64,000 nt of DNA, taken from NCBI RefSeq assembly GCF_053078305.1, contig NZ_CP166879.1; one strand, 5' to 3'. Made by a program: the position numbers and the translations under genes. How positions within the stretch are numbered: the stretch's first letter is position 1; each line of letters starts with the position of its first letter. The notes beneath the pieces were generated by a model. It had not been told where the DNA came from. It ran no database searches and saw only the letters and a program-made list of their open reading frames with translations. Shown here in pieces: positions 12,242-22,364 of this stretch.

Positions 12242-14137
<1,896 letters not shown>

Positions 14138-14165
14138 TAATCCTCCCGCCAGAAGAATAAAACAT

Positions 14166-14198
14166 AGCCCGGTATACAAGTGTATACCGGGCTTTTTT
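14166..14198 (+). terminator. Intrinsic terminator after parE
   Basis: Hairpin agcccggtatac-aag-tgtataccgggct followed by TTTTTT; the receptor gene stop codon sits 3 nt beyond the T tract. Confidence 0.7.
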
Positions 14199-14200
14199 GA

Positions 14201-16342
14201 TCAAAATTCCATTTTCACCGTGAATTGCACTTCACGCGGATCGCCAATCTGATTCCCCAGATTATTTGTGGCGATGGAAGAGGTGTAATACGTTTTATCA
14301 AACAGGTTTTTGACGTTTAATTGCAGTGTGACCGGATACTGCAATTTCATTTTGTATGCGGCGAAGGCATCGGCAACGAAATAGCCTGGCAGATAATAGT
14401 CAGCCCCATTGGTTGCCGAACGACGGCTTACGCCATGTCCACCACCGCCAAACGTCAGTGTGTTATTGCCAGGCATGTTATGAATGTCATAGGTCAGGAA
14501 TAGCGAACCGGTATGACGAGGAACATTCGGCAATGGTTTCCCTGCATAATCAGGATCTTCCAGAACCTTAGCATCGGTATAGCCGTAGCTGGCAATGATA
14601 TTAATGTTTTCAGTTAATGCTCCCGCAAGGTCGACTTCTACCCCTCTTGAACGAACGCGGCCTGCCGTTTTGGCGATGGTTTCATCACCAATACTTTCGG
14701 TATACAACACGTTACGTTTATGGATATCAAACAGCGCAATATCTGCGGTTATACCATCGAACAGCTCGAATTTTGCCCCGACTTCGTAAGCATTAGATGA
14801 TTCCGGTGGAAGATCTCCGATGTAGCTGGCAATTGACGATTGCGGCATAAATGTTTGCGAATAATTAGCAAATAAGGATACCGATGGCGTCAGTTTGTAG
14901 ACTAACCCCAGTTTGGGCGTCCATTGTTCATCGCGGCTGTCAGTATTGACATTAAAAGGACGGCCTTTACCCGCATACTGCGTGTAATACTGATAGCGGA
15001 TCCCGGCGACGGCAATCCAGTTATCGGTCAGATAGAGCGCATCCTGTGCATAAGCTGAGTAGCTCTCCTGTTTGATCGTCTGATCACTGTCCGACGCCGA
15101 AACCGTTGTGCATTTGCTGGTATTGCCATAAACGGGGTTGTAGATATTGAAATCTTTAGCGTTTTTACAGCGAATCATATCTGTGCGCAGAAGATCATAA
15201 TATTCATATGACACCCCACCCAGAATCTCATTATAGAACCCAGCAATATCAACATTCCCTTGCAGATCCGCACGAGTAGAATGCATACGCTGGGTAGATC
15301 CCTGAGTTGCATCAACACGCCGTGTCAGCGTTCCTGTCGTTGCATCATACGCGGTAACGCGAGCCTGATTGTCGCTGTATTTATCCTGGCTGTAGCTGTA
15401 ATCAAAGCGCGCTGTCCACTGGCTATTGAGATGATATTCTGCGTTGAGTTGCGCCAGATCGGACTGACCATCTGTAATATTAAACGGTTCGTCAAAACGT
15501 ATTTTTCGATCAACGTTTACGGGCTGTTTCGTCGTAAGGTCGAAAATCGTTCCACGATCGAACGGAGTTTTATAGTCCCGATGGGAATAGAGCATGGTTA
15601 CTGTTGCATTATCACCAAACCAGGTGAGTGACGGGGCAATAAATGTACTGCGCTCTTTACCGAAGTTTCGCCAGTAATCTTCATCCTGCACTTCCCCCGT
15701 CAGGCGGTATGCCAGCTGAGTGCCTTCAATGGGACCTGTGATATCAAGTTGCCCAGTGCCTCCGCCAAAACTGGAGGACGTGGCTGAGACAGAACCATGG
15801 AATGTTTTTTCCGGGCGCTTGGTCACGACGTTAATCAATCCACCAGGATCGAGAATGCCATACAGCGTGGAGGCCGGACCTTTTAGCACTTCCACACGTT
15901 CTGTGGCGGCGTTGAAACTGCGAGGAAGTACAGTTCGCAGGCCGTTGGTCATGATGGAGCCATCCCGGTTAGCACCAAACCCACGACGTACAAAGGCGTC
16001 CTGAGTTCCGCCTAATGTATTGGTCTGTACCACGTTACTGACGTTATAAAGCGCTTCATCCAGCGTCGTTGCATTCTGATTTTCCAGAACCTGATCGCTA
16101 ACCGTATTGACCACCTGCGGGATATCCAGCATCGGCATATCGGTTAATGTCGCCGTGGAAGTGCTCAGAGGTTGATAACCATCGGTCGCCTCAGTTGCGG
16201 TATTTGCATCCGCTGTAACAGTGATTGTTTCGCCATCTTTGGTCGTTGCAGTGTCGGTTGCATGAATCATTGGTGCTGCAAAGAGCAGTGAAAAGAGCGC
16301 CCGACCTTTGATTCCTGAGAATGAAGGTGTGAACTTAGCCAT
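14201..16342 (-). CDS. TonB-dependent outer-membrane receptor, siderophore-receptor-like (accessory island; possibly fitA)
   Basis: 713 aa; signal peptide (MAKFTPSFSGIKGRALFSLLFAAPMIHA), TonB-box-like ETITVTA, plug then beta-barrel, C-terminal aromatic residue (...FTVKMEF). Confidence 0.9.
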   Translation of the reverse strand: MAKFTPSFSGIKGRALFSLLFAAPMIHATDTATTKDGETITVTADANTATEATDGYQPLSTSTATLTDMPMLDIPQVVNTVSDQVLENQNATTLDEALYNVSNVVQTNTLGGTQDAFVRRGFGANRDGSIMTNGLRTVLPRSFNAATERVEVLKGPASTLYGILDPGGLINVVTKRPEKTFHGSVSATSSSFGGGTGQLDITGPIEGTQLAYRLTGEVQDEDYWRNFGKERSTFIAPSLTWFGDNATVTMLYSHRDYKTPFDRGTIFDLTTKQPVNVDRKIRFDEPFNITDGQSDLAQLNAEYHLNSQWTARFDYSYSQDKYSDNQARVTAYDATTGTLTRRVDATQGSTQRMHSTRADLQGNVDIAGFYNEILGGVSYEYYDLLRTDMIRCKNAKDFNIYNPVYGNTSKCTTVSASDSDQTIKQESYSAYAQDALYLTDNWIAVAGIRYQYYTQYAGKGRPFNVNTDSRDEQWTPKLGLVYKLTPSVSLFANYSQTFMPQSSIASYIGDLPPESSNAYEVGAKFELFDGITADIALFDIHKRNVLYTESIGDETIAKTAGRVRSRGVEVDLAGALTENINIIASYGYTDAKVLEDPDYAGKPLPNVPRHTGSLFLTYDIHNMPGNNTLTFGGGGHGVSRRSATNGADYYLPGYFVADAFAAYKMKLQYPVTLQLNVKNLFDKTYYTSSIATNNLGNQIGDPREVQFTVKMEF

Positions 16343-16715
16343 TTAGTCTGTTATCCCAAAAACTCACGGATTGTCGTGAGTGAAAATTGTTTCTTGTTGC
16401 TCACTAAGCACTATCCGTTTGTTATTTCACCATCGGATATGTAATTGAGAATCATTCAACCATGCGGTAATGTAGTAGTAAATGAGAAATAACAAAAAAT
16501 TGCTACATGTGTTTTTTTGAGAGGTTAATGCAATTCAATTGATGGTAATTTATTAATATTTAATGATTTTATTTTTATCTTTAAAAATATTTCACCTGTT
16601 ATTTACCTTGTTTTTGTATGGCTTTTAACTTCTTGACTACTACATTTTGTGGCGTCAAACTCTCAAAAGAGAATGAGTTTTATTTTTGTTTGTCTTTGAT
16701 TAAGTTGGCGTACAC
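16343..16715. promoter_or_regulatory. Divergent promoter region between the receptor gene and the ABC-transporter operon; contains a Fur-box-like motif
   Basis: 373 bp AT-rich non-coding spacer; around 16438-16459 tatgtaattgagaatcattcaac partially matches the GATAATGATAATCATTATC Fur consensus. Not scored with a PWM. Confidence 0.4.
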
Positions 16716-17525
16716 GTGGCACATAACGCAAAAGGGCAGGGGCTGATCCTCGACAATGTTTCTGCCGGGTATCACAAGAAAATCATTGTTGATGGTGTTT
16801 CTTTCTCCGTTCCCACAGAAAAAATGACCGTTCTGGTTGGGGCAAACGGCTGTGGAAAGTCGACGTTGCTCAGCACCATTGCACGTATCTTGCAACCCAT
16901 GGGCGGCTCAATATTGCTGGATGGTAAAGCGATTCACGAGCAACCAACGAAAGCGTTATCCCGTAGACTTGGGATCTTGCCGCAGTCGCCATTATTGCCG
17001 GAGGGCTTAACCGTTTATGAACTGGTGTCGCGTGGGCGTTTTCCCTGGCAAAATTTCATACGTCAATGGAGCGACGCCGACGAGCAGGCGGTAGAAGAGG
17101 CCCTGAAATTAACCGGTACGCAGGAGTTTGCTCATTTACCTGTTGAAAAACTCTCTGGTGGGCAGCGCCAGCGTTGCTGGATTGCGATGGTGTTGGCGCA
17201 AAAGACGCCTTATATCCTACTGGATGAACCCACAACCTGGCTTGATTTACGTTATCAGGTTGAAATTCTTGAGTTATTACATGATTTAACGCGTCATCAC
17301 GGGCGTACAGTCGTCGTGGTGTTGCATGATCTGAATTTTGCCGTCAATTATGGTGATACGTTGATATTTTTACGCCAGGGGAAAGTGGTGCGTGTGTTGA
17401 ATGAGGGGGAGCATTGCACGCCTGAGCTGGTAAAAGCTGTCTTTGACGTTGATGTTCACGCATCAATAAATACTCTGACGGGAAAGCCGTTCTTCATGCC
17501 GTTTCGTGGTGTAGAAAAAGTATGA
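16716..17525 (+). CDS. ABC transporter ATP-binding protein, iron-siderophore (FepC/FecE-like) type
   Basis: Walker A GANGCGKST, ABC signature LSGGQRQR, Walker B ILLDEPT; GTG start at 16716 is uncertain. Confidence 0.85.
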   Translation: MAHNAKGQGLILDNVSAGYHKKIIVDGVSFSVPTEKMTVLVGANGCGKSTLLSTIARILQPMGGSILLDGKAIHEQPTKALSRRLGILPQSPLLPEGLTVYELVSRGRFPWQNFIRQWSDADEQAVEEALKLTGTQEFAHLPVEKLSGGQRQRCWIAMVLAQKTPYILLDEPTTWLDLRYQVEILELLHDLTRHHGRTVVVVLHDLNFAVNYGDTLIFLRQGKVVRVLNEGEHCTPELVKAVFDVDVHASINTLTGKPFFMPFRGVEKV

Positions 17526-18505
17526 TGCGCACAGGGCTGGTTACTGTAATTTTCCTCACCTTACTGCTGGTGGGATGCGTGGTATATCCAGGGATTGGTG
17601 CCCGATTTATTGCACCACAAACGGTGTTGCAGGCATTTCTTCATTTTGATCCGCAAAACTTCGATCACAGCGTAATTGTAAGACTCCGTTTGCCGCGTTT
17701 AGCGGCAGCATTGCTTACCGGTGCTTCTCTTGGTGTTGCCGGTGCTTTGTTGCAGGCTGTCATTCGTAACCCATTGGGGGAGCCACATATTTTAGGCTTA
17801 AATGCCGGAGCCGCTCTTGCTGTCGTTGCCGCCAGTGCGCTTGGACTGGCCTTTCCGGCTGGACGCCCACTGCTGGCATCTACGGGGGGCGCGTTATTGT
17901 TCCTGTTGATATTGCTGCTTTCCTCCGCAGGGCGTTCAGGGTTAACGCCAATGAAAGTTACTTTATGCGGCGTGGCGCTATCGGCGTTCGTGTCCTCAAT
18001 AACGGCTGCAATCCTGATTCTTGACGAACAAACACTGCTGGCGATGCGGACATGGCTAGCAGGTGATTTAGCGGGGCAGGATTGGGTGACGCTGGGTACG
18101 TCCGTCTGGTTTTCTCTGGGGGGATTTGTGTTAGCCATTTACCTTGCGCCCTCTCTTAACATGTTGGCACTGGGTGATCGCATGGCGCAGGGGCTGGGCG
18201 TCTCGGTACTCCGCACGCGAACATTCACCCTGCTTGCGATCGCGTTGCTCTGTGGCGCAGCCGTATCGATTGCTGGCCCCATTGGTTTTGTCGGCCTGCT
18301 AGTACCGCAGATTGTCCGGCGTCTGGTATCAGCGGATCTGCGCGTTCTGCTCCCTCTTTCAGCTTGTGTCGGCGCGCTTTTGTTATTACTGGCAGATATT
18401 ATTGCTCGGACGCTCTTCACGCCCCATGAGTTAGCGACCGGTGTCATGACGGCGTTAGTTGGTGCGCCTGTTTTTGTCATTATGGCGACGAGGATGTTCA
18501 AATGA
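17522..18505 (+). CDS. ABC transporter permease, FecCD family
   Basis: 327 aa polytopic membrane protein; start overlaps the ATPase stop and its stop overlaps the next start (ATGA), indicating translational coupling. Confidence 0.85.
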   Translation: MMRTGLVTVIFLTLLLVGCVVYPGIGARFIAPQTVLQAFLHFDPQNFDHSVIVRLRLPRLAAALLTGASLGVAGALLQAVIRNPLGEPHILGLNAGAALAVVAASALGLAFPAGRPLLASTGGALLFLLILLLSSAGRSGLTPMKVTLCGVALSAFVSSITAAILILDEQTLLAMRTWLAGDLAGQDWVTLGTSVWFSLGGFVLAIYLAPSLNMLALGDRMAQGLGVSVLRTRTFTLLAIALLCGAAVSIAGPIGFVGLLVPQIVRRLVSADLRVLLPLSACVGALLLLLADIIARTLFTPHELATGVMTALVGAPVFVIMATRMFK

Positions 18506-19551
18506 GTCGGATAATGAACGTCGGGCTACGCCCACTACGTGTTGGTAAGTTTTCGACACTGGTACGCCCTAAAAATCTGGTGTTGCTTGGTGGGCTGTTT
18601 CTGTTTGCGGTTGGAATACTGATATTCGGTCTGATGCATGGTTCTTTTTCTGTCCCGGCATCGGAAGTAGGACGAGCGTTGTTTGCTCCAGAAAACGTAA
18701 GCACAGACGCACGTTATATTGTGCAGGATATTCGCTTGCCGAGAGTCATCATGGCATTGCTATGCGGAGCCATGTTAGGTATGGCGGGGGCCGCGATGCA
18801 ATCCATTGCGCGTAACGGCCTTGCCGATCCTGGTTTAATCGGCGTCAAAGAAGGATGTAGCGTGGCGGTGCTGTGGCTGATTTTCCAGTTTCCAATGCTG
18901 GGAATGTTCTGGCGTCCAGTGGCTGGTCTTGCTGGTGGCTTGTTGGTGGCTTTAATCGTGATTTTTTGTGCACGCGATATTTCCCGCCCGCGATTTGTTC
19001 TGATTGGTATTGGTGTTTCCTGGTTTTTCGCCGCCGGTATCGGTGTATTTATGACCACTGCAGATGTTCGAGATGTACAAACTGCATTGATGTGGTTATC
19101 GGGAAGCCTGCATGCAGCTAACTGGATGTTAGTCGGTATTTCAGCCTGTTGGATGTTGCCAGCCACTCTTTTATTGCTGTTCACCGCCAGGACGGCGGAT
19201 ATCGCTCTGCTTGGTCATCAGGTTGCAACCGGGTTAGGGGTGAATAGTTCTCGTCTGGCGTTGTTACGTGTCGCCGCACCAATAATCCTGACAGCCGTCT
19301 GCGTTTCGTGTGTTGGTAACATCGGTTTTGTCGGATTGATAGCACCCCATATATCACGTTTTATTCTACGTGGCGGGCAGACGACATTACTGCTGGGGAG
19401 CGCCGTATCGGGGGCGTTGTTAGTCATCCTGGCGGATAGCATTGGTCGTTTGGCTTTTTTGCCTTTGCAACTGCCTGCCGGAATCATTATTTCATTGATT
19501 GGTGGACCATTCTTTTTGCTACTGCTCTGGCAGTGCAGGAACAGTTTTTAA
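18502..19551 (+). CDS. ABC transporter permease, FecCD family (second subunit)
   Basis: 349 aa polytopic membrane protein paralogous to the preceding permease. Confidence 0.85.
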   Translation: MSRIMNVGLRPLRVGKFSTLVRPKNLVLLGGLFLFAVGILIFGLMHGSFSVPASEVGRALFAPENVSTDARYIVQDIRLPRVIMALLCGAMLGMAGAAMQSIARNGLADPGLIGVKEGCSVAVLWLIFQFPMLGMFWRPVAGLAGGLLVALIVIFCARDISRPRFVLIGIGVSWFFAAGIGVFMTTADVRDVQTALMWLSGSLHAANWMLVGISACWMLPATLLLLFTARTADIALLGHQVATGLGVNSSRLALLRVAAPIILTAVCVSCVGNIGFVGLIAPHISRFILRGGQTTLLLGSAVSGALLVILADSIGRLAFLPLQLPAGIIISLIGGPFFLLLLWQCRNSF

Positions 19552-19561
19552 TGGGAGTTAT

Positions 19562-20509
19562 ATGCGTTTATTTTTTTCTCTGCTGATACTGTTGTCATTC
19601 TTTGCCCGCGCGACAGAACCTGTTCAGGTCTTTACTGATGATTTAGGGCGCAAAGTCACTGTTCCTGCTCATCCAAAGAGAATTGTCTCTTTACACGATC
19701 TTGATATCACTATTCCTCTGATTGAGCTCGGTGTACCTCCTGTCGCCAGCCACGGGCGAACTCGGCCTGACGGTAGCCATTTCATTCGATCAGGCGCGTT
19801 ATTGACAGGTGTCGACTTTGATAATTCATCGATCGCTTTTATTGGCACCGCTGATATTGATATTGAAGCGATTGTGGCGGCAAAGCCTGACCTGATTATC
19901 ACAGAACCGACCCGTAATACGCCCATTGAACAACTGGAAAAAATTGCGCCCACGGTGAGCATTGATCATCTCAAAGGAGGCGCGCCAGAAATCTACCGCA
20001 AGCTGGCAGAACTGACAGGAACGCAGTCGCAGCTGGCGATACTTGAACGCCGCTATCAGGCACAAATCAATGCGCTGAAGGCGACGCTGGACAGCCAAAA
20101 AATAACGGTATCGGTGATTCAGGCAAATCAGGGAAAAATTAATGTGATGCATAGCTATCATTCGCTGGGGCGGGTATTACGCGATGCTGGTTTTCGCTTT
20201 CCGCCGCTGATTGAGAGCATTCCTGAAGGTGGGCGAATGGATGTGAGCGCGGAGCGTTTACCTGAACTGGATGCCGATTTTGTTTTTGCAACCTGGCGCG
20301 GTGACACCGGTGGTAAACCTCAGGATGAGCTGGCAGCAATGGAAAAAGTCATGCCGGGATGGTGTCAGTTTCTGACTGCCTGTCGTTCCGGGCGTTATGT
20401 GCTGATTTCTCGTGAAGAGGCAATTTCTAACTCCTTTGCATCTCTGGGGCTGATGGCTGCGCAGATACAATCACAAATTGCGGGGCGACCTTTACCGGAG
20501 GCCAAATGA
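19562..20509 (+). CDS. Periplasmic substrate-binding protein (FepB/FhuD-like) of the ABC importer
   Basis: ORF track 19499..20509; preferred start is ATG 19562 (SD gggag) giving signal peptide MRLFFSLLILLSFFARA. Confidence 0.8.
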   Translation: MRLFFSLLILLSFFARATEPVQVFTDDLGRKVTVPAHPKRIVSLHDLDITIPLIELGVPPVASHGRTRPDGSHFIRSGALLTGVDFDNSSIAFIGTADIDIEAIVAAKPDLIITEPTRNTPIEQLEKIAPTVSIDHLKGGAPEIYRKLAELTGTQSQLAILERRYQAQINALKATLDSQKITVSVIQANQGKINVMHSYHSLGRVLRDAGFRFPPLIESIPEGGRMDVSAERLPELDADFVFATWRGDTGGKPQDELAAMEKVMPGWCQFLTACRSGRYVLISREEAISNSFASLGLMAAQIQSQIAGRPLPEAK

Positions 20510-21393
20510 TTCAGAAAGACAAAACGCGGGTTGATATTTATGGTGAGCGTTTTCGCACTCGCGCGAGTCAGTTAACGCCTGGGTTAAGAGCTGTCGCCAG
20601 CTATATTAATGAGCATCGTGAAGTGGTACTCGAGCAAACGGCGATGGAAATTGCGGCCACGTTGAACACTTCCGATGCCACAGTTATCAGGGCTATACAG
20701 GCCCTGGGGTTTGCCGGGCTGCGTGATCTGAAACGCACTCTGGAACAGTGGCTTGGTCCAGCCCTTAGTTCCAGCGAAAAGATGTCTACGACGGTGAGTA
20801 ACTTGACGAGCGATGTTAACACCGCAATCGACTTTGTTCTTGAAGGGCATTTGTATACCTGTAATGTCCTGTCAGAGCCTGAAAACCGCCACGCGCTTGC
20901 GCAAGCGGTAGCGTTGTTGGTACAGGCACGGCAAGTCGCAATTTTTGGCATTGGCGCTTCGGGTATTCTGGCGGACTATACCGCACGACTATTCAACCGC
21001 ATAGGTTTGCCAGCCACGGCACTAAACCGTACGGGTATTGGCCTTGCCGAGCAACTGATCGCGCTTCAACGTGGCGATGTTCTGATCATGATGGCGCAAA
21101 AATCTGCGCACCGGGAAGGGCTGACAACGCTGCGTGAAGCGAGACGGCTGGGGATCCCTGTTATTTTGCTGACAAACGCGCTGGATTCACGTTTTAGCAA
21201 AGACGCCAGTATCGTGATTCATGTTCCGCGCGGGGATGAAAAGGGGAAAACGCCACTACATGGTACGGTATTGTTGTGCCTGGAAATGATTGTCTGGTCG
21301 GTGGCTTCCGCGGTGCCGCAGCGTGCGGTTAAAACCATTAAGCGAATTAACGATTTCCATCGGGGGCTGAAAACGGGAAGAAAGAATGGCTAA
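20506..21393 (+). CDS. RpiR-family transcriptional regulator (N-terminal HTH plus C-terminal SIS phosphosugar-binding-like domain)
   Basis: 295 aa; HTH region (EIAATLNTSDATVIRAIQALGF) and SIS-like region (VAIFGIGASGILADYTARLFNRIG); start overlaps the binding-protein stop. Confidence 0.85.
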   Translation: MIQKDKTRVDIYGERFRTRASQLTPGLRAVASYINEHREVVLEQTAMEIAATLNTSDATVIRAIQALGFAGLRDLKRTLEQWLGPALSSSEKMSTTVSNLTSDVNTAIDFVLEGHLYTCNVLSEPENRHALAQAVALLVQARQVAIFGIGASGILADYTARLFNRIGLPATALNRTGIGLAEQLIALQRGDVLIMMAQKSAHREGLTTLREARRLGIPVILLTNALDSRFSKDASIVIHVPRGDEKGKTPLHGTVLLCLEMIVWSVASAVPQRAVKTIKRINDFHRGLKTGRKNG

Positions 21394-21401
21394 TCTGACC
21401 T

Positions 21402-21430
21402 GAGGCCGGTAGCAACACCGGCCTCTTTTC
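21402..21430 (+). terminator. Intrinsic terminator after the RpiR-family gene
   Basis: Hairpin gaggccggt-agcaac-accggcctc followed by TTTT, directly before the ygiN stop on the opposite strand. Confidence 0.6.
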
Positions 21431-21437
21431 AGGAATG

Positions 21438-21752
21438 TTAAATCCCCGGTTGCAGAATACGGATATTCATCTCCAGCACGTCGCCTTTTACGGCTTCGCT
21501 GTACGCCTTCATGTGCGGGGTTTGCAGATGCGCTTCAAGGTGCGCGATGCTTTCCCACTGCTCAATCATCACGATAGAGTCCGGTGCCATAGACTGGAAA
21601 CTCACGCCAGCAGCGCAATCCACCATTGGCGCATAGCCGTGGCAACCTTCTTCTTTCAGTACGGTTGGAACGATTTTAGCAAACTGATCCAATACCGCCT
21701 GACGGTGATGTTGACCAGGACGAGTACGGATTTCTGCGATTACGGTAAGCAT
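21438..21752 (-). CDS. ygiN: Quinol monooxygenase YgiN (ABM domain)
   Basis: 104 aa, MLTVIAEIRTRPGQHHRQAVLDQFAKIVP... recognised. Confidence 0.9.
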   Translation of the reverse strand: MLTVIAEIRTRPGQHHRQAVLDQFAKIVPTVLKEEGCHGYAPMVDCAAGVSFQSMAPDSIVMIEQWESIAHLEAHLQTPHMKAYSEAVKGDVLEMNIRILQPGI

Positions 21753-21782
21753 GGTTAACTCCTTCTAAAGCCTGAGCTCTAG

Positions 21783-22364
21783 TTAACCAAAAATTTCCAC
21801 AAGATGCTTGCGATATTCTTCAGTATAGCGGGGAACATCAGGCATTTTTATCACGTCATTAGCGATAAATGTCGGCAGCGGTTCCATGCCAAGGAATTGG
21901 TTTGCTTTATGGAACGGCAGATACACACCGTCGACGCCAACGCCGTGGAAGAATTGATCTTTTTCGGTGAAGGCTTCCATTGGTGCGTTCCAGGTCAGAG
22001 AAAGCATATATTTTTTGCCCTGTACCAGGCCGCCGGAACCGTATTTTTTCGACGGATCTTTGCGGGTACGACCATCGCTGGCATACAGCGTCCCGTGACC
22101 TTCGGTGAATACATCATCAATGTATTTTTTCACTGTCCACGGCGCGCCCATCCACCAGCCTGGCATCTGCCAGATCACCACATCAGCCCAGAGAAAGTTT
22201 TGTACTTCCGCTTTGACATCGTAGTCGCTGTCGGCGCGAACGATGCGAACATCATGCCCGAGGTCGCGCAGTGTGCCATCCGCGACTTCGGTCAGGGTGT
22301 CGTTCAGTTGACCATTGGAGTGGGCGAATTTTTTCGCGCCGTTGATAATCAGGATGTTGCTCAT
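21783..22364 (-). CDS. mdaB: NADPH:quinone oxidoreductase MdaB
   Basis: 193 aa flavodoxin-like protein (MSNILIINGAKKFAHSNGQLN...); recognised. Confidence 0.9.
   Translation of the reverse strand: MSNILIINGAKKFAHSNGQLNDTLTEVADGTLRDLGHDVRIVRADSDYDVKAEVQNFLWADVVIWQMPGWWMGAPWTVKKYIDDVFTEGHGTLYASDGRTRKDPSKKYGSGGLVQGKKYMLSLTWNAPMEAFTEKDQFFHGVGVDGVYLPFHKANQFLGMEPLPTFIANDVIKMPDVPRYTEEYRKHLVEIFG

Follow-up and report, generated by a model that had tools for sequence, protein, structure and literature searches.

Dedicated regulators of siderophore uptake include the ECF-sigma system FecIR, the AraC-type proteins PchR, YbtA and AlcR, and two-component systems. In the 64,000-nucleotide stretch of DNA analysed here (NCBI RefSeq assembly GCF_053078305.1, contig NZ_CP166879.1; hereafter the window), an iron-siderophore ABC transport operon instead ends with a gene for an RpiR-type protein carrying HTH_6 and SIS domains, a class that is unusual for siderophore uptake loci, as the first-pass annotation had pointed out. 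The same annotation took the SIS domain as a sign that the imported molecule or the signal may be a sugar or phosphosugar. We asked what this regulator is, where it is likely to bind and what it might sense.

The fit locus and its operon structure

The window is Escherichia coli chromosome, with 99.9% identity to E. coli chromosomes that have the same parE–fit–ygiN gene order. Six genes form a 7.2-kb insert flanked by parE and ygiN, in which fitA is divergent from fitBCDE–fitR (Table 1). Although the arrangement had been presented as unexplored, the fit locus and FitR as its regulator are already known, having been published in 2006 and 2008. The earlier of the two papers, by Ouyang and Isaacson, reportedly described the E. 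coli fit system. All six genes match the order and functions given by Ouyang and Isaacson in 2008, who assigned HTH and sugar-isomerase domains to FitR and characterized it as an auto-repressor binding fitA–fitB intergenic DNA (PMC2593036). The organism, the gene order and the gene-by-gene predicted functions are the same, and 20506–21393 is the same gene, fitR; nothing substantive differs except the reported FitR mass, 28 kDa in the 2008 paper (PMC2593036) versus 32.2 kDa calculated here, a gap that the choice of another start codon in 2008 may account for. That paper gives neither an operator, a ligand nor a phylogenetic distribution for FitR (PMC2593036), and the candidate operator and distribution data below are additions to it. 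Literature searches for a FitR ligand, a FitR operator or the substrate transported by fit returned no report, and neither subsequent work on FitR nor a link between RpiR proteins and siderophores turned up beyond the 2008 paper.

At least 80% of the fit locus was present in 1,870 of 5,426 complete genomes and the parE–fitA junction in 1,748, whereas a K-12 derivative lacked the locus. fit is an accessory locus that only some E. coli strains carry, in agreement with the uneven, B2-biased distribution of fitA (PMC9409007) and the pathogen-biased distribution of the operon (as cited in PMC5907654).

The description of fitR as the last gene of a TonB-dependent ABC import operon held in part. fitR closes the ABC transporter operon fitBCDE–fitR, but the receptor gene fitA lies on the opposite strand, divergent from the shared intergenic region, and so does not belong to the same operon. 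The fitR ATG overlaps the fitE stop codon (TGA, 20507–20509) as ATGA, with GGAGG 5 nt upstream, an arrangement usually taken to indicate translational coupling. Between the convergent fitR and ygiN, the hairpin that we read as a probable terminator has a minimum free energy of −23.3 kcal/mol (z-score −5.0); it failed a simple terminator scan, with only four T after the stem, and the scan found no terminator. The fitA product scored 373.6 bits against TIGR01783 (cut-off 223.5), and its best specific models (PRK14050, FhuA and ferrioxamine receptors) were all below equivalog cut-offs. FitA and the receptors adjoining FitR orthologues scored highest against ferrichrome and ferrioxamine receptor models, and by sequence the fit receptors resemble hydroxamate-siderophore receptors.

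Table 1 Features of the fit locus, in window coordinates
Feature	Position	Strand	Basis or remark
fitA, TonB-dependent siderophore receptor, 713 aa	14201..16342	-	ORF, RefSeq annotation, TIGR01783
Divergent regulatory region, 373 bp, ~39% G+C, both promoters	16343..16715	.	Sequence and composition; EMSA fragment lies in this region
TGTAATTGAGAATCATTCAA, Fur-box-like, overlaps candidate fitA -10	16440..16459	-	Conservation
Candidate fitA -10, TTGAAT	16454-16459	-	Footprinting
TTTACTACTACA, candidate half-site over fitA promoter -35 and spacer; plus strand TGTAGTAGTAAA	16471..16482	-	Invariant (15-genera alignment), exact match
GCTACA, inverted partner half-site	16502..16507	+	Gives TGTAGT-N25-RCTACA
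TTGACTACTACA, -35 hexamer TTGACT plus ACTACA half-site, fitB promoter	16633..16644	+	Invariant in 15 genera, exact match
Candidate fitB -10, CAAACT	16656-16661	+	With -35 TTGACT
GAGAATGAGTTTTATTTTT, Fur-box-like, downstream of fitB -10	16669..16687	+	Conserved block; 11/19 of Fur consensus by eye
fitB, ABC transporter ATPase, GTG start	16716..17525	+	FecE/FepC/FhuC-like, all under equivalog cut-offs; RefSeq
fitC, FecCD-family permease	17522..18505	+	ORF, RefSeq, model matches
fitD, FecCD-family permease	18514..19551	+	RefSeq start; longest ORF from 18502
fitE, periplasmic iron-siderophore binding protein	19562..20509	+	RefSeq start; longest ORF from 19499; weak FepB/FecB similarity only
fitR, RpiR/MurR-family repressor, 295 aa, ATG start	20506..21393	+	HTH_6 and SIS; experiments in PMC2593036
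G+C-rich hairpin, 9-bp stem, then UUUU; probable terminator	21402..21425	+	Between convergent fitR and ygiN

FitR is an RpiR/MurR-family protein

By its HTH_6 domain, its SIS domain and its whole-protein similarity, FitR belongs to the RpiR/MurR family. Both domains expected from the first-pass annotation were recovered in Pfam (HTH_6, residues 15–81, E = 9.8e-10; SIS, residues 138–247, E = 1.3e-13), and the AlphaFold2 model was RpiR-like, with a mean pLDDT of 90.9 and values above 90 in the helical N-terminal domain. Its best solved-structure matches in Foldseek were the RpiR regulators RccR, NanR and MurR, and the SIS fold aligned with the SIS domains of 3sho and MurR at target-normalised TM-scores of 0.83–0.85; phmmer likewise returned RccR (4.1e-15) and NanR (6.4e-14). 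An identical gene is named ‘MurR/RpiR family transcriptional regulator’ in RefSeq. NCBIfam matches were to the MurR/RpiR-family regulator, AlsR, HexR and MurR models, all far below their equivalog cut-offs, placing FitR in no named orthologous group.

A candidate FitR operator in both fit promoters

Published experiments bear out the proposal that the fitR product regulates the 16343–16715 promoter region: knockout of fitR de-repressed fitA and fitB 2–5 fold, a modest effect, over-expression of fitR repressed both, and purified FitR shifted a 347-bp fitA–fitB intergenic fragment in EMSA (PMC2593036). Fur repressed fit 23-fold, and Fur and FitR acted independently (PMC2593036). FitR is a local repressor, also of its own operon, that acts in addition to Fur.

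Phylogenetic footprinting of the intergenic region across 15 genera revealed four invariant or near-invariant blocks, TGTAGTAGTAAA and TTGACTACTACA among them. The sequence TT(G/T)ACTACTACA was invariant over the −35 region of both fit promoters, and the 16633–16644 element and 16469–16482 formed a 14-nt inverted repeat with 93% complementarity. Every one of the 20 type II loci, and Orrella as well, contained the 8-mer of the fitA-side half-site. Start-to-start spacing from TGTAGT to the inverted partner RCTACA was fixed at 31 bp (Citrobacter youngae has 30 bp) throughout the 20 type II loci and in four of the seven type I loci examined; the partner at +31 bp was absent from three of those seven, including the Klebsiella, Raoultella and Kluyvera lineages. 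ACTACTACA was concentrated at regulatory DNA, with 97 copies in the 21.3 kb of 49 fitA–fitB intergenic regions (at least two copies in 48 of the 49), 22 in the 12 kb of 20 receptor–fitR intergenic regions and just 8 in the remaining 1.295 Mb of the same loci. It also occurred beside FitR orthologues in two other arrangements, one in Pantoea, Serratia and Tatumella and one in Orrella, whose regulator is 45% identical to FitR. In DNase footprints and EMSA, RccR binds TGTAGT/ACTACA; TGTAGTAGT is part of its PaceA probe. From this conservation and the analogy with RccR, we propose TT(G/T)ACTACTACA as a candidate FitR operator. A third near-match, at 46314–46325, falls within coding sequence and is mismatched in the core, and we attribute it to chance.

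Because the conserved 12-mer takes in the −35 hexamer, its conservation is partly due to promoter function. One could go further and read the TTKACTACTACA elements as sites for the promoter or for other factors, with FitR binding elsewhere, for example at the inverted repeat CTCACGgattgtCGTGAG (16363–16380). The 12-mer does hold a good −35 hexamer (TTGACT or TTTACT), the E. coli intergenic region contains several further inverted repeats, and the operator role of TTKACTACTACA is a prediction. However, sigma-70 spacers are normally unconstrained, and yet ACTACA, the six bases that follow the −35, is invariant in 15 genera. The motif also accompanies FitR in three arrangements, including one before fitR itself that has no Fur box, and it equals the footprinted RccR half-site. 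Neither the 16363–16380 repeat nor the other E. coli-only repeats that we considered as operators were conserved in other genera. We regard this alternative as highly improbable and retain TT(G/T)ACTACTACA as the candidate FitR site.

Each promoter also carries a Fur-like box. The TGTAATTGAGAATCATTCAA element was invariant at 19 of 20 positions in 15 genera, with a one-base gap in one sequence, was near-invariant in type II loci too, and by eye agreed with the Fur consensus at 12 of 19 positions. These boxes were found through conservation only: the strict Fur consensus GATAATGATAATCATTATC, at up to three mismatches, had no match in the window. A simple sigma-70 scan returned one weak site only, not above chance expectation, so that the promoter assignments rest on phylogenetic footprinting.

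The FitR effector pocket is non-canonical

In RccR, NanR and MurR, contact with the effector phosphate is made by four conserved Ser/Thr residues (PMC11014249). In our alignment, RccR S139, S183, S185 and S188 correspond to FitR S152, A197, K199 and H202, so that one of the four is kept and the effector loop, 197-AQKSAHRE-204, is non-canonical. Among 119 orthologues, the loop [A/G]QKS[A/P]HRE was invariant or nearly so, and no member had more than one Ser/Thr among positions 197, 199 and 202; the full triad was present in just one of 90 more distant homologues. FitR thus lacks the four-Ser/Thr set of the phosphosugar-sensing RpiR regulators. The pocket is also basic (R161, R165, K199, H202 and R203) and could still bind an anion, phosphate included.

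RccR and HexR of Pseudomonas are RpiR-family repressors that sense KDPG. FitR might likewise sense a phosphosugar, either because its cargo or a breakdown product carries a sugar phosphate or because a central-carbon signal gates iron import in the style of HexR and RccR. The SIS fold would suit such a role, and each of the closest solved homologues (RccR, NanR and MurR) has a phosphorylated sugar as its ligand. FitR keeps S152 along with the basic R161 and R165, the counterparts of RccR H148 and R152; K199, H202 and R203 could stand in for the serines as phosphate ligands; and in Erwinia sp. JUb26, Pantoea coffeiphila and Orrella, where the operon is extended, two genes for PstS-like proteins (phosphate-binding-protein fold) lie just upstream of fitR. 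Set against this, three of the four phosphate-binding residues are replaced in all 119 orthologues and the triad is nearly absent further out; the receptors look like hydroxamate-siderophore receptors; and fit encodes a receptor and an ABC transporter only, with no effector-metabolising neighbours and no sugar-metabolism gene conserved beside it across the 18 genera examined. In Enterobacter, a GH88/DUF2264/MFS/AraC cluster lies downstream of fitR; we weighed it as a sugar link and rejected it, since it is lineage-specific, has its own regulator and is absent from E. coli and most genera. Phosphosugar sensing is in our judgement quite unlikely, and the sugar interpretation of the first-pass annotation is not sustained.

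The loss of the canonical ligand-binding triad could also mean that FitR has no small-molecule effector and works as a constitutive negative-feedback damper, capping fit expression once Fur repression lifts. Repression by FitR is only 2–5 fold, versus 23-fold by Fur, no FitR inducer was reported in the literature searched, and negative autoregulation is inherent in a layout that places fitR last in its operon. However, conservation across the 119 orthologues reaches 97–100% in the pocket loop and in the PRG...PLHG motif, versus about 70% average identity for the whole protein, which argues for a constrained binding site and not a decayed one. The subfamily is, moreover, repeatedly found beside ABC importers of different classes, as substrate-responsive regulators would be. 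An effector-free FitR therefore seems doubtful to us, and we favour a repressor that responds to a ligand.

As to that ligand, the SIS domain appears to be folded and its pocket strongly constrained, but with three of the four phosphate-binding Ser/Thr missing, the effector that presumably relieves FitR repression is most likely not a canonical sugar phosphate. We would prefer, though with little confidence, an anionic compound connected with the imported hydroxamate-type (xeno)siderophore. A broader proposal is that FitR, together with the roughly 200 homologue clusters closest to it, forms an RpiR subfamily without phosphate recognition, sensing non-phosphorylated anionic ligands, with the S-x-S-G-x-S/T loop changed to AQKSAHRE in FitR and to AYGxxYxE in more distant members. 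In the case of FitR, either the imported (xeno)siderophore itself or its iron-free product would bind and relieve a looped complex on three TGTAGT/ACTACA half-sites. This extension is tentative, and we hold it to be possible at less than even odds. The contexts of homologues at 51% (Xanthobacter) and 42% identity contained no iron genes, so that a link to TonB systems reaches no further than the FitR clade and the branch with Orrella.

A proposed model for repression of fit

We propose that FitR would recognise TGTAGT/ACTACA half-sites, the same as those of its closest solved relative, RccR. Three conserved half-sites, TGTAGT(AGT) at 16471, GCTACA at 16502 and (TTG)ACTACTACA at 16633–16644, are predicted to overlie the −35 and spacer of each divergent promoter, where FitR would stand in the way of RNA polymerase. 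Because RpiR regulators form tetramers, FitR may also loop the approximately 160 bp between sites. One Fur-like box lies over or just past each −10, a layout that would explain independent, additive repression. The best explanation as a whole, to which we assign a probability of about 0.8, is that fitR is the last gene of fitBCDE–fitR and encodes a local repressor with a TGTAGT/ACTACA operator and a likely non-sugar-phosphate effector.

As first stated, the finding re-discovers a published regulator and changes little. The substrate of fit and the effector of FitR are of moderate interest, given the enrichment of fit in extra-intestinal and adherent-invasive E. coli, the induction of fitA in carbapenem-resistant Klebsiella when iron is limiting, and the importance of TonB-dependent receptors for siderophore-conjugated antibiotics. 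The fit substrate was called unknown in a 2018 paper, and a 2022 paper contains no functional data for FitA. Both the candidate operator and the non-canonical pocket lend themselves to concrete, cheap tests. If the tentative assignment of FitR to a non-phosphate subfamily is true, FitR would be the first siderophore-responsive SIS-domain repressor and a route to the orphan fit substrate. The FitR pocket also warns against attaching the label ‘phosphosugar sensor’ to every HTH_6 plus SIS protein.

Relation to known regulators

Among solved proteins, RccR (PA5438) is the best sequence and structure match to FitR and has the same two-domain architecture (8k3b; E = 4e-15, Foldseek E = 3.7e-16, at only 22–23% identity). 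The DNA-contacting RccR residue R53 is R62 in FitR, invariant in orthologues, whereas RccR R56 is Q65, so DNA recognition is not identical. The RccR half-site is the hexamer pair conserved in the fit promoters, but RccR spacers are variable (3 bp and 16 bp), whereas fit has a 25-bp spacer and a third site about 130–190 bp away; RccR controls central carbon metabolism, and FitR a Fur-regulated TonB/ABC uptake system. NanR of Vibrio vulnificus (4ivn) and MurR of E. coli (7en5 and 7en7) share the HTH_6 plus SIS fold with FitR; each locally represses an operon for uptake and catabolism and is released by a product formed in the cytoplasm from the imported substrate. The effectors of the two, ManNAc-6-P and MurNAc-6-P, are held by the Ser/Thr set that FitR lacks, and sugar catabolism is encoded in their operons, in contrast to the transport-only fit. 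FecIR, PchR, YbtA, AlcR and the two-component systems, like FitR, add a locus-specific layer over Fur control of TonB-dependent uptake; they are activators that answer the ferric siderophore, whereas FitR represses and belongs to another protein family.

FitR closes the fit operon

The first-pass annotation had described the regulator as an HTH plus SIS-domain protein ending a TonB-dependent import operon. Pfam searches confirmed both domains in the 295-amino-acid product of the ORF at 20506–21393, with HTH_6 at residues 15–81 (E = 9.8e-10) and SIS at residues 138–247 (E = 1.3e-13). The RefSeq gene order is cpdA, yqiA, parE, a TonB-dependent siderophore receptor (minus strand), an ABC ATPase, two FecCD permeases, an iron-siderophore binding protein, the MurR/RpiR family regulator, ygiN, mdaB and qseCB; the regulator gene thus does close the ABC operon, but the receptor gene is divergent from it rather than part of it. 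The regulator ATG overlaps the binding-protein TGA as ATGA, GGAGG lies 5 bases 5′ of this ATG, and a strong hairpin (−23.3 kcal/mol, z −5.0) follows the gene. The longest fitD and fitE ORFs begin 5′ of the RefSeq starts, and the long form of fitE would overlap fitD by 53 bases.

These six genes make up the fit system described by Ouyang and Isaacson, who in 2008 named the products (fitA receptor, FitB ATPase, FitC and FitD permeases, FitE periplasmic binding protein) and had already described the regulator as FitR (PMC2593036). In that work, fitR knockout de-repressed fitA and fitB, complementation and over-expression restored repression, His-tagged FitR shifted a 347-bp fitA–fitB intergenic fragment, a shift that unlabelled DNA could compete, and FitR repressed fit independently of Fur; its binding site and any cofactor were left open (PMC2593036). 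The fit substrate has been stated to be unknown, and not enterobactin (PMC5907654), another study turned up no functional data on FitA (PMC9409007), and our literature searches found no work on FitR after the 2008 paper. Purified FitR was given as 28 kDa, a size described as matching the prediction (PMC2593036), versus 32.2 kDa calculated for 295 amino acids, leaving a small discrepancy; a start at M47 would yield 26.9 kDa and lose part of the HTH domain. The protein collection also lists a 246-amino-acid 'partial' form of FitR (P0015). The window is E. coli chromosome, and its positions 14000–22000 match many complete genomes at 99.9% identity. Only some strains carry the accessory fit locus: 1,870 of 5,426 complete E. 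coli genomes contain at least 80% of it, and the match of a K-12 derivative to the window ends at the end of parE.

FitR has a predicted non-canonical effector pocket

The closest solved proteins to FitR are P. aeruginosa RccR with KDPG (8k3b) and V. vulnificus NanR with ManNAc-6-P (4ivn); an AlphaFold2 model of FitR (mean pLDDT 90.9) matched both, and also MurR. RccR holds its effector phosphate through S139, S183, S185 and S188 (PMC11014249). HMMER alignments place S152, A197, K199 and H202 of FitR at these positions; in NanR the last three are S, S and T. Across 119 FitR orthologues, with overall identity of only ~70%, the loop 197-[A/G]QKS[A/P]HRE-204 was essentially invariant, and none had Ser or Thr at two or more of positions 197, 199 and 202. 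Among 90 distant full-length homologues (<40% identity), one had the full Ser/Thr triad and most had A-Y-G-R-x-Y-x-E. Judged from these alignments, the RpiR-family phosphate signature is absent from FitR, and the loss of the triad together with the invariant loop places FitR in an RpiR subfamily whose pocket is constrained but non-canonical. At the phosphate-binding position, the SIS domain of a Sphaerobacter thermophilus RpiR protein (structural-genomics entry PDB 3sho) likewise has a non-canonical loop, SVWRYLRD. This entry, which has no assigned ligand, provides a solved template for the non-phosphate RpiR subfamily.

FitR keeps R161 and R165, the equivalents of RccR H148 and R152, and the pocket is basic (R161, R165, K199, H202 and R203), so that an anionic ligand is still plausible. 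The missing triad would also suit a FitR that works without any effector; set against the near-invariance of the altered loop, we consider this unlikely.

FitR orthologues adjoin iron-uptake genes

Scanning one genome per species yielded 292 relatives, and tblastn searches of 80 fetched loci with the Fit proteins revealed three arrangements. In type I (49 loci, from Escherichia, Enterobacter, Kosakonia, Citrobacter, Klebsiella, Raoultella, Kluyvera, Phytobacter and some Erwinia), fitA is divergent from fitBCDE–fitR. Type II (20 loci: L052, L053, L059–L067, L070, L072–L074, L076, L078, L080, L084 and L085; Pantoea, Serratia, Tatumella and others, including Erwinia) has a lone fitR, without fitBCDE, divergent from another receptor 34–39% identical to FitA. 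Type II regulators are 66–69% identical to FitR, with the same pocket loop; they are far better conserved than the adjoining receptor, which is odd if a specific cargo is sensed. In Pantoea agglomerans (L066), the sole type II locus examined in detail, a ferrichrome/ferrioxamine-type binding protein is encoded 3′ of the receptor. The third arrangement, in Orrella dioscoreae (Burkholderiales), is a one-strand operon of a receptor, fitBCDE-like genes, two PstS-like genes and a regulator 45% identical to FitR. Homologues at 51% and ≤42% identity sit elsewhere, and those at ~35% adjoin ABC importers of other classes.

Between fitE and fitR, the type I locus of Erwinia sp. JUb26 has genes for two PstS-like proteins and for a PepSY_TM membrane protein that may be a FoxB-type siderophore reductase; an equal-sized gap in the type I locus of Pantoea coffeiphila (L044) probably marks another extended operon. 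In both Erwinia and Orrella the two PstS-like genes are paralogous (PBP_like_2; TIGR02136 at 52–76 bits, below cut-off), and their products have no obvious signal peptide; such cytoplasmic-looking proteins with a phosphate-binding fold are puzzling in a siderophore operon.

For all the receptors, FhuA, FoxA or ferrioxamine models gave the top scores, which fell below the curated cut-offs. Bona fide FoxA adjoins fit in Kosakonia and in Citrobacter youngae (1,397 bits against a cut-off of 1,300), suggesting an iron-uptake neighbourhood in some genera. A 5.5–6 kb cluster separates fitR from ygiN in Enterobacter soli, Silvania and Huaxiibacter, with an equal-sized gap in several other Enterobacter loci. 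Named by eye, its genes encode an AraC regulator, a 629-amino-acid DUF2264-like protein, an MFS symporter and a GH88-like unsaturated glucuronyl hydrolase. We rejected it as a conserved sugar link because it is lineage-specific; it seems to have inserted independently at the same hotspot of the chromosome.

Across the 18 genera examined, no gene for sugar or sugar-phosphate metabolism was conserved beside fit. The SIS domain had been taken to hint at a sugar or phosphosugar cargo or signal; with three of the four phosphate-binding Ser/Thr residues also missing from FitR, this interpretation is not supported. Despite the retained fold and basic pocket, we think it quite improbable that FitR senses a phosphosugar or carbon-status signal.

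A candidate FitR operator

Alignment of the fitA–fitB intergenic region from 15 genera revealed four invariant or near-invariant blocks in otherwise AT-rich, unalignable DNA.

Coordinates of features in the window and in comparison loci
Feature	Location	Detail
TGTAATTGAGAATCATTCAA	16440-16459	conserved block
TGTAGTAGTAAA	16471-16482	conserved block
TTGACTACTACA	16633-16644	conserved block
GAGAATGAG.TTTATTT	from 16669	conserved block
fitD start, longest ORF/RefSeq	18502/18514	12 bases apart
fitE start, longest ORF/RefSeq	19499/19562	63 bases apart
TTTACTACTCCA	46314-46325	one mismatch to candidate operator
310-aa ORF	45598-46530	contains TTTACTACTCCA
Extra genes, Erwinia sp. JUb26	L042:6926-9992	fit-like operon
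Extra genes, Orrella dioscoreae	L003:8010-9946	fit-like operon
FoxA, Citrobacter youngae	L037:629-2737	ferrioxamine B receptor
fitR-ygiN cluster, Enterobacter soli	L011:10963-16317	

Both promoters follow the same plan in the direction of their gene: TT(T/G)ACT as −35, immediately followed by an invariant ACTACA, a total spacer of 17 nt and a weak −10 (TTGAAT or CAAACT), with a Fur-like box over or just past the −10. The 9-mer ACTACTACA is strongly enriched in the intergenic regions, with 97 matches in 21.3 kb of type I DNA (at least two in 48 of 49 loci) and 22 in 12 kb of type II DNA, compared with 8 in 1.295 Mb elsewhere in the same loci. The motif was present in every type II region and in Orrella. 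The plus-strand layout reads TGTAGT, N25, RCTACA, ~130–190 bp and ACTACA. All type II loci and about half of the examined type I loci have it in full, and every region has its outer two sites. In most type II loci the last site lies ~60–180 bp 5′ of fitR, usually without a Fur box. Orrella keeps the site pair though it has no divergent gene, which hints that the sites cooperate. The coding-region match TTTACTACTCCA is probably due to chance.

Sequence analysis here gives the domain architecture and fold of FitR and shows that the triad is lost, that the altered loop is conserved and that the half-sites are conserved and co-occur with FitR. From the half-sites shared with RccR and the conserved R62, we propose that FitR, probably tetrameric as RccR and MurR are, binds at the TGTAGT/ACTACA sites. 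Bound FitR would occlude both −35 regions, with looping between sites possible, and Fur would exert its own effect at the −10 regions, an arrangement that would fit the published additive repression. The effector may be a non-phosphosugar anion linked to an imported hydroxamate-type siderophore. That the conserved elements are something other than FitR sites seems very unlikely beside their enrichment and the RccR precedent. What remains of value is the orphan fit substrate and FitR effector; the pocket analysis and candidate operator suggest direct experiments on them.

DNase footprints and EMSA show RccR binding exactly the half-site conserved at fit, TGTAGT/ACTACA, with spacers of 3 or 16 bp, and the PaceA probe of RccR contains TGTAGTAGT. 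The DNA-binding R53 of RccR corresponds to FitR R62, which is invariant, whereas RccR R56 is replaced by Q65 in FitR.
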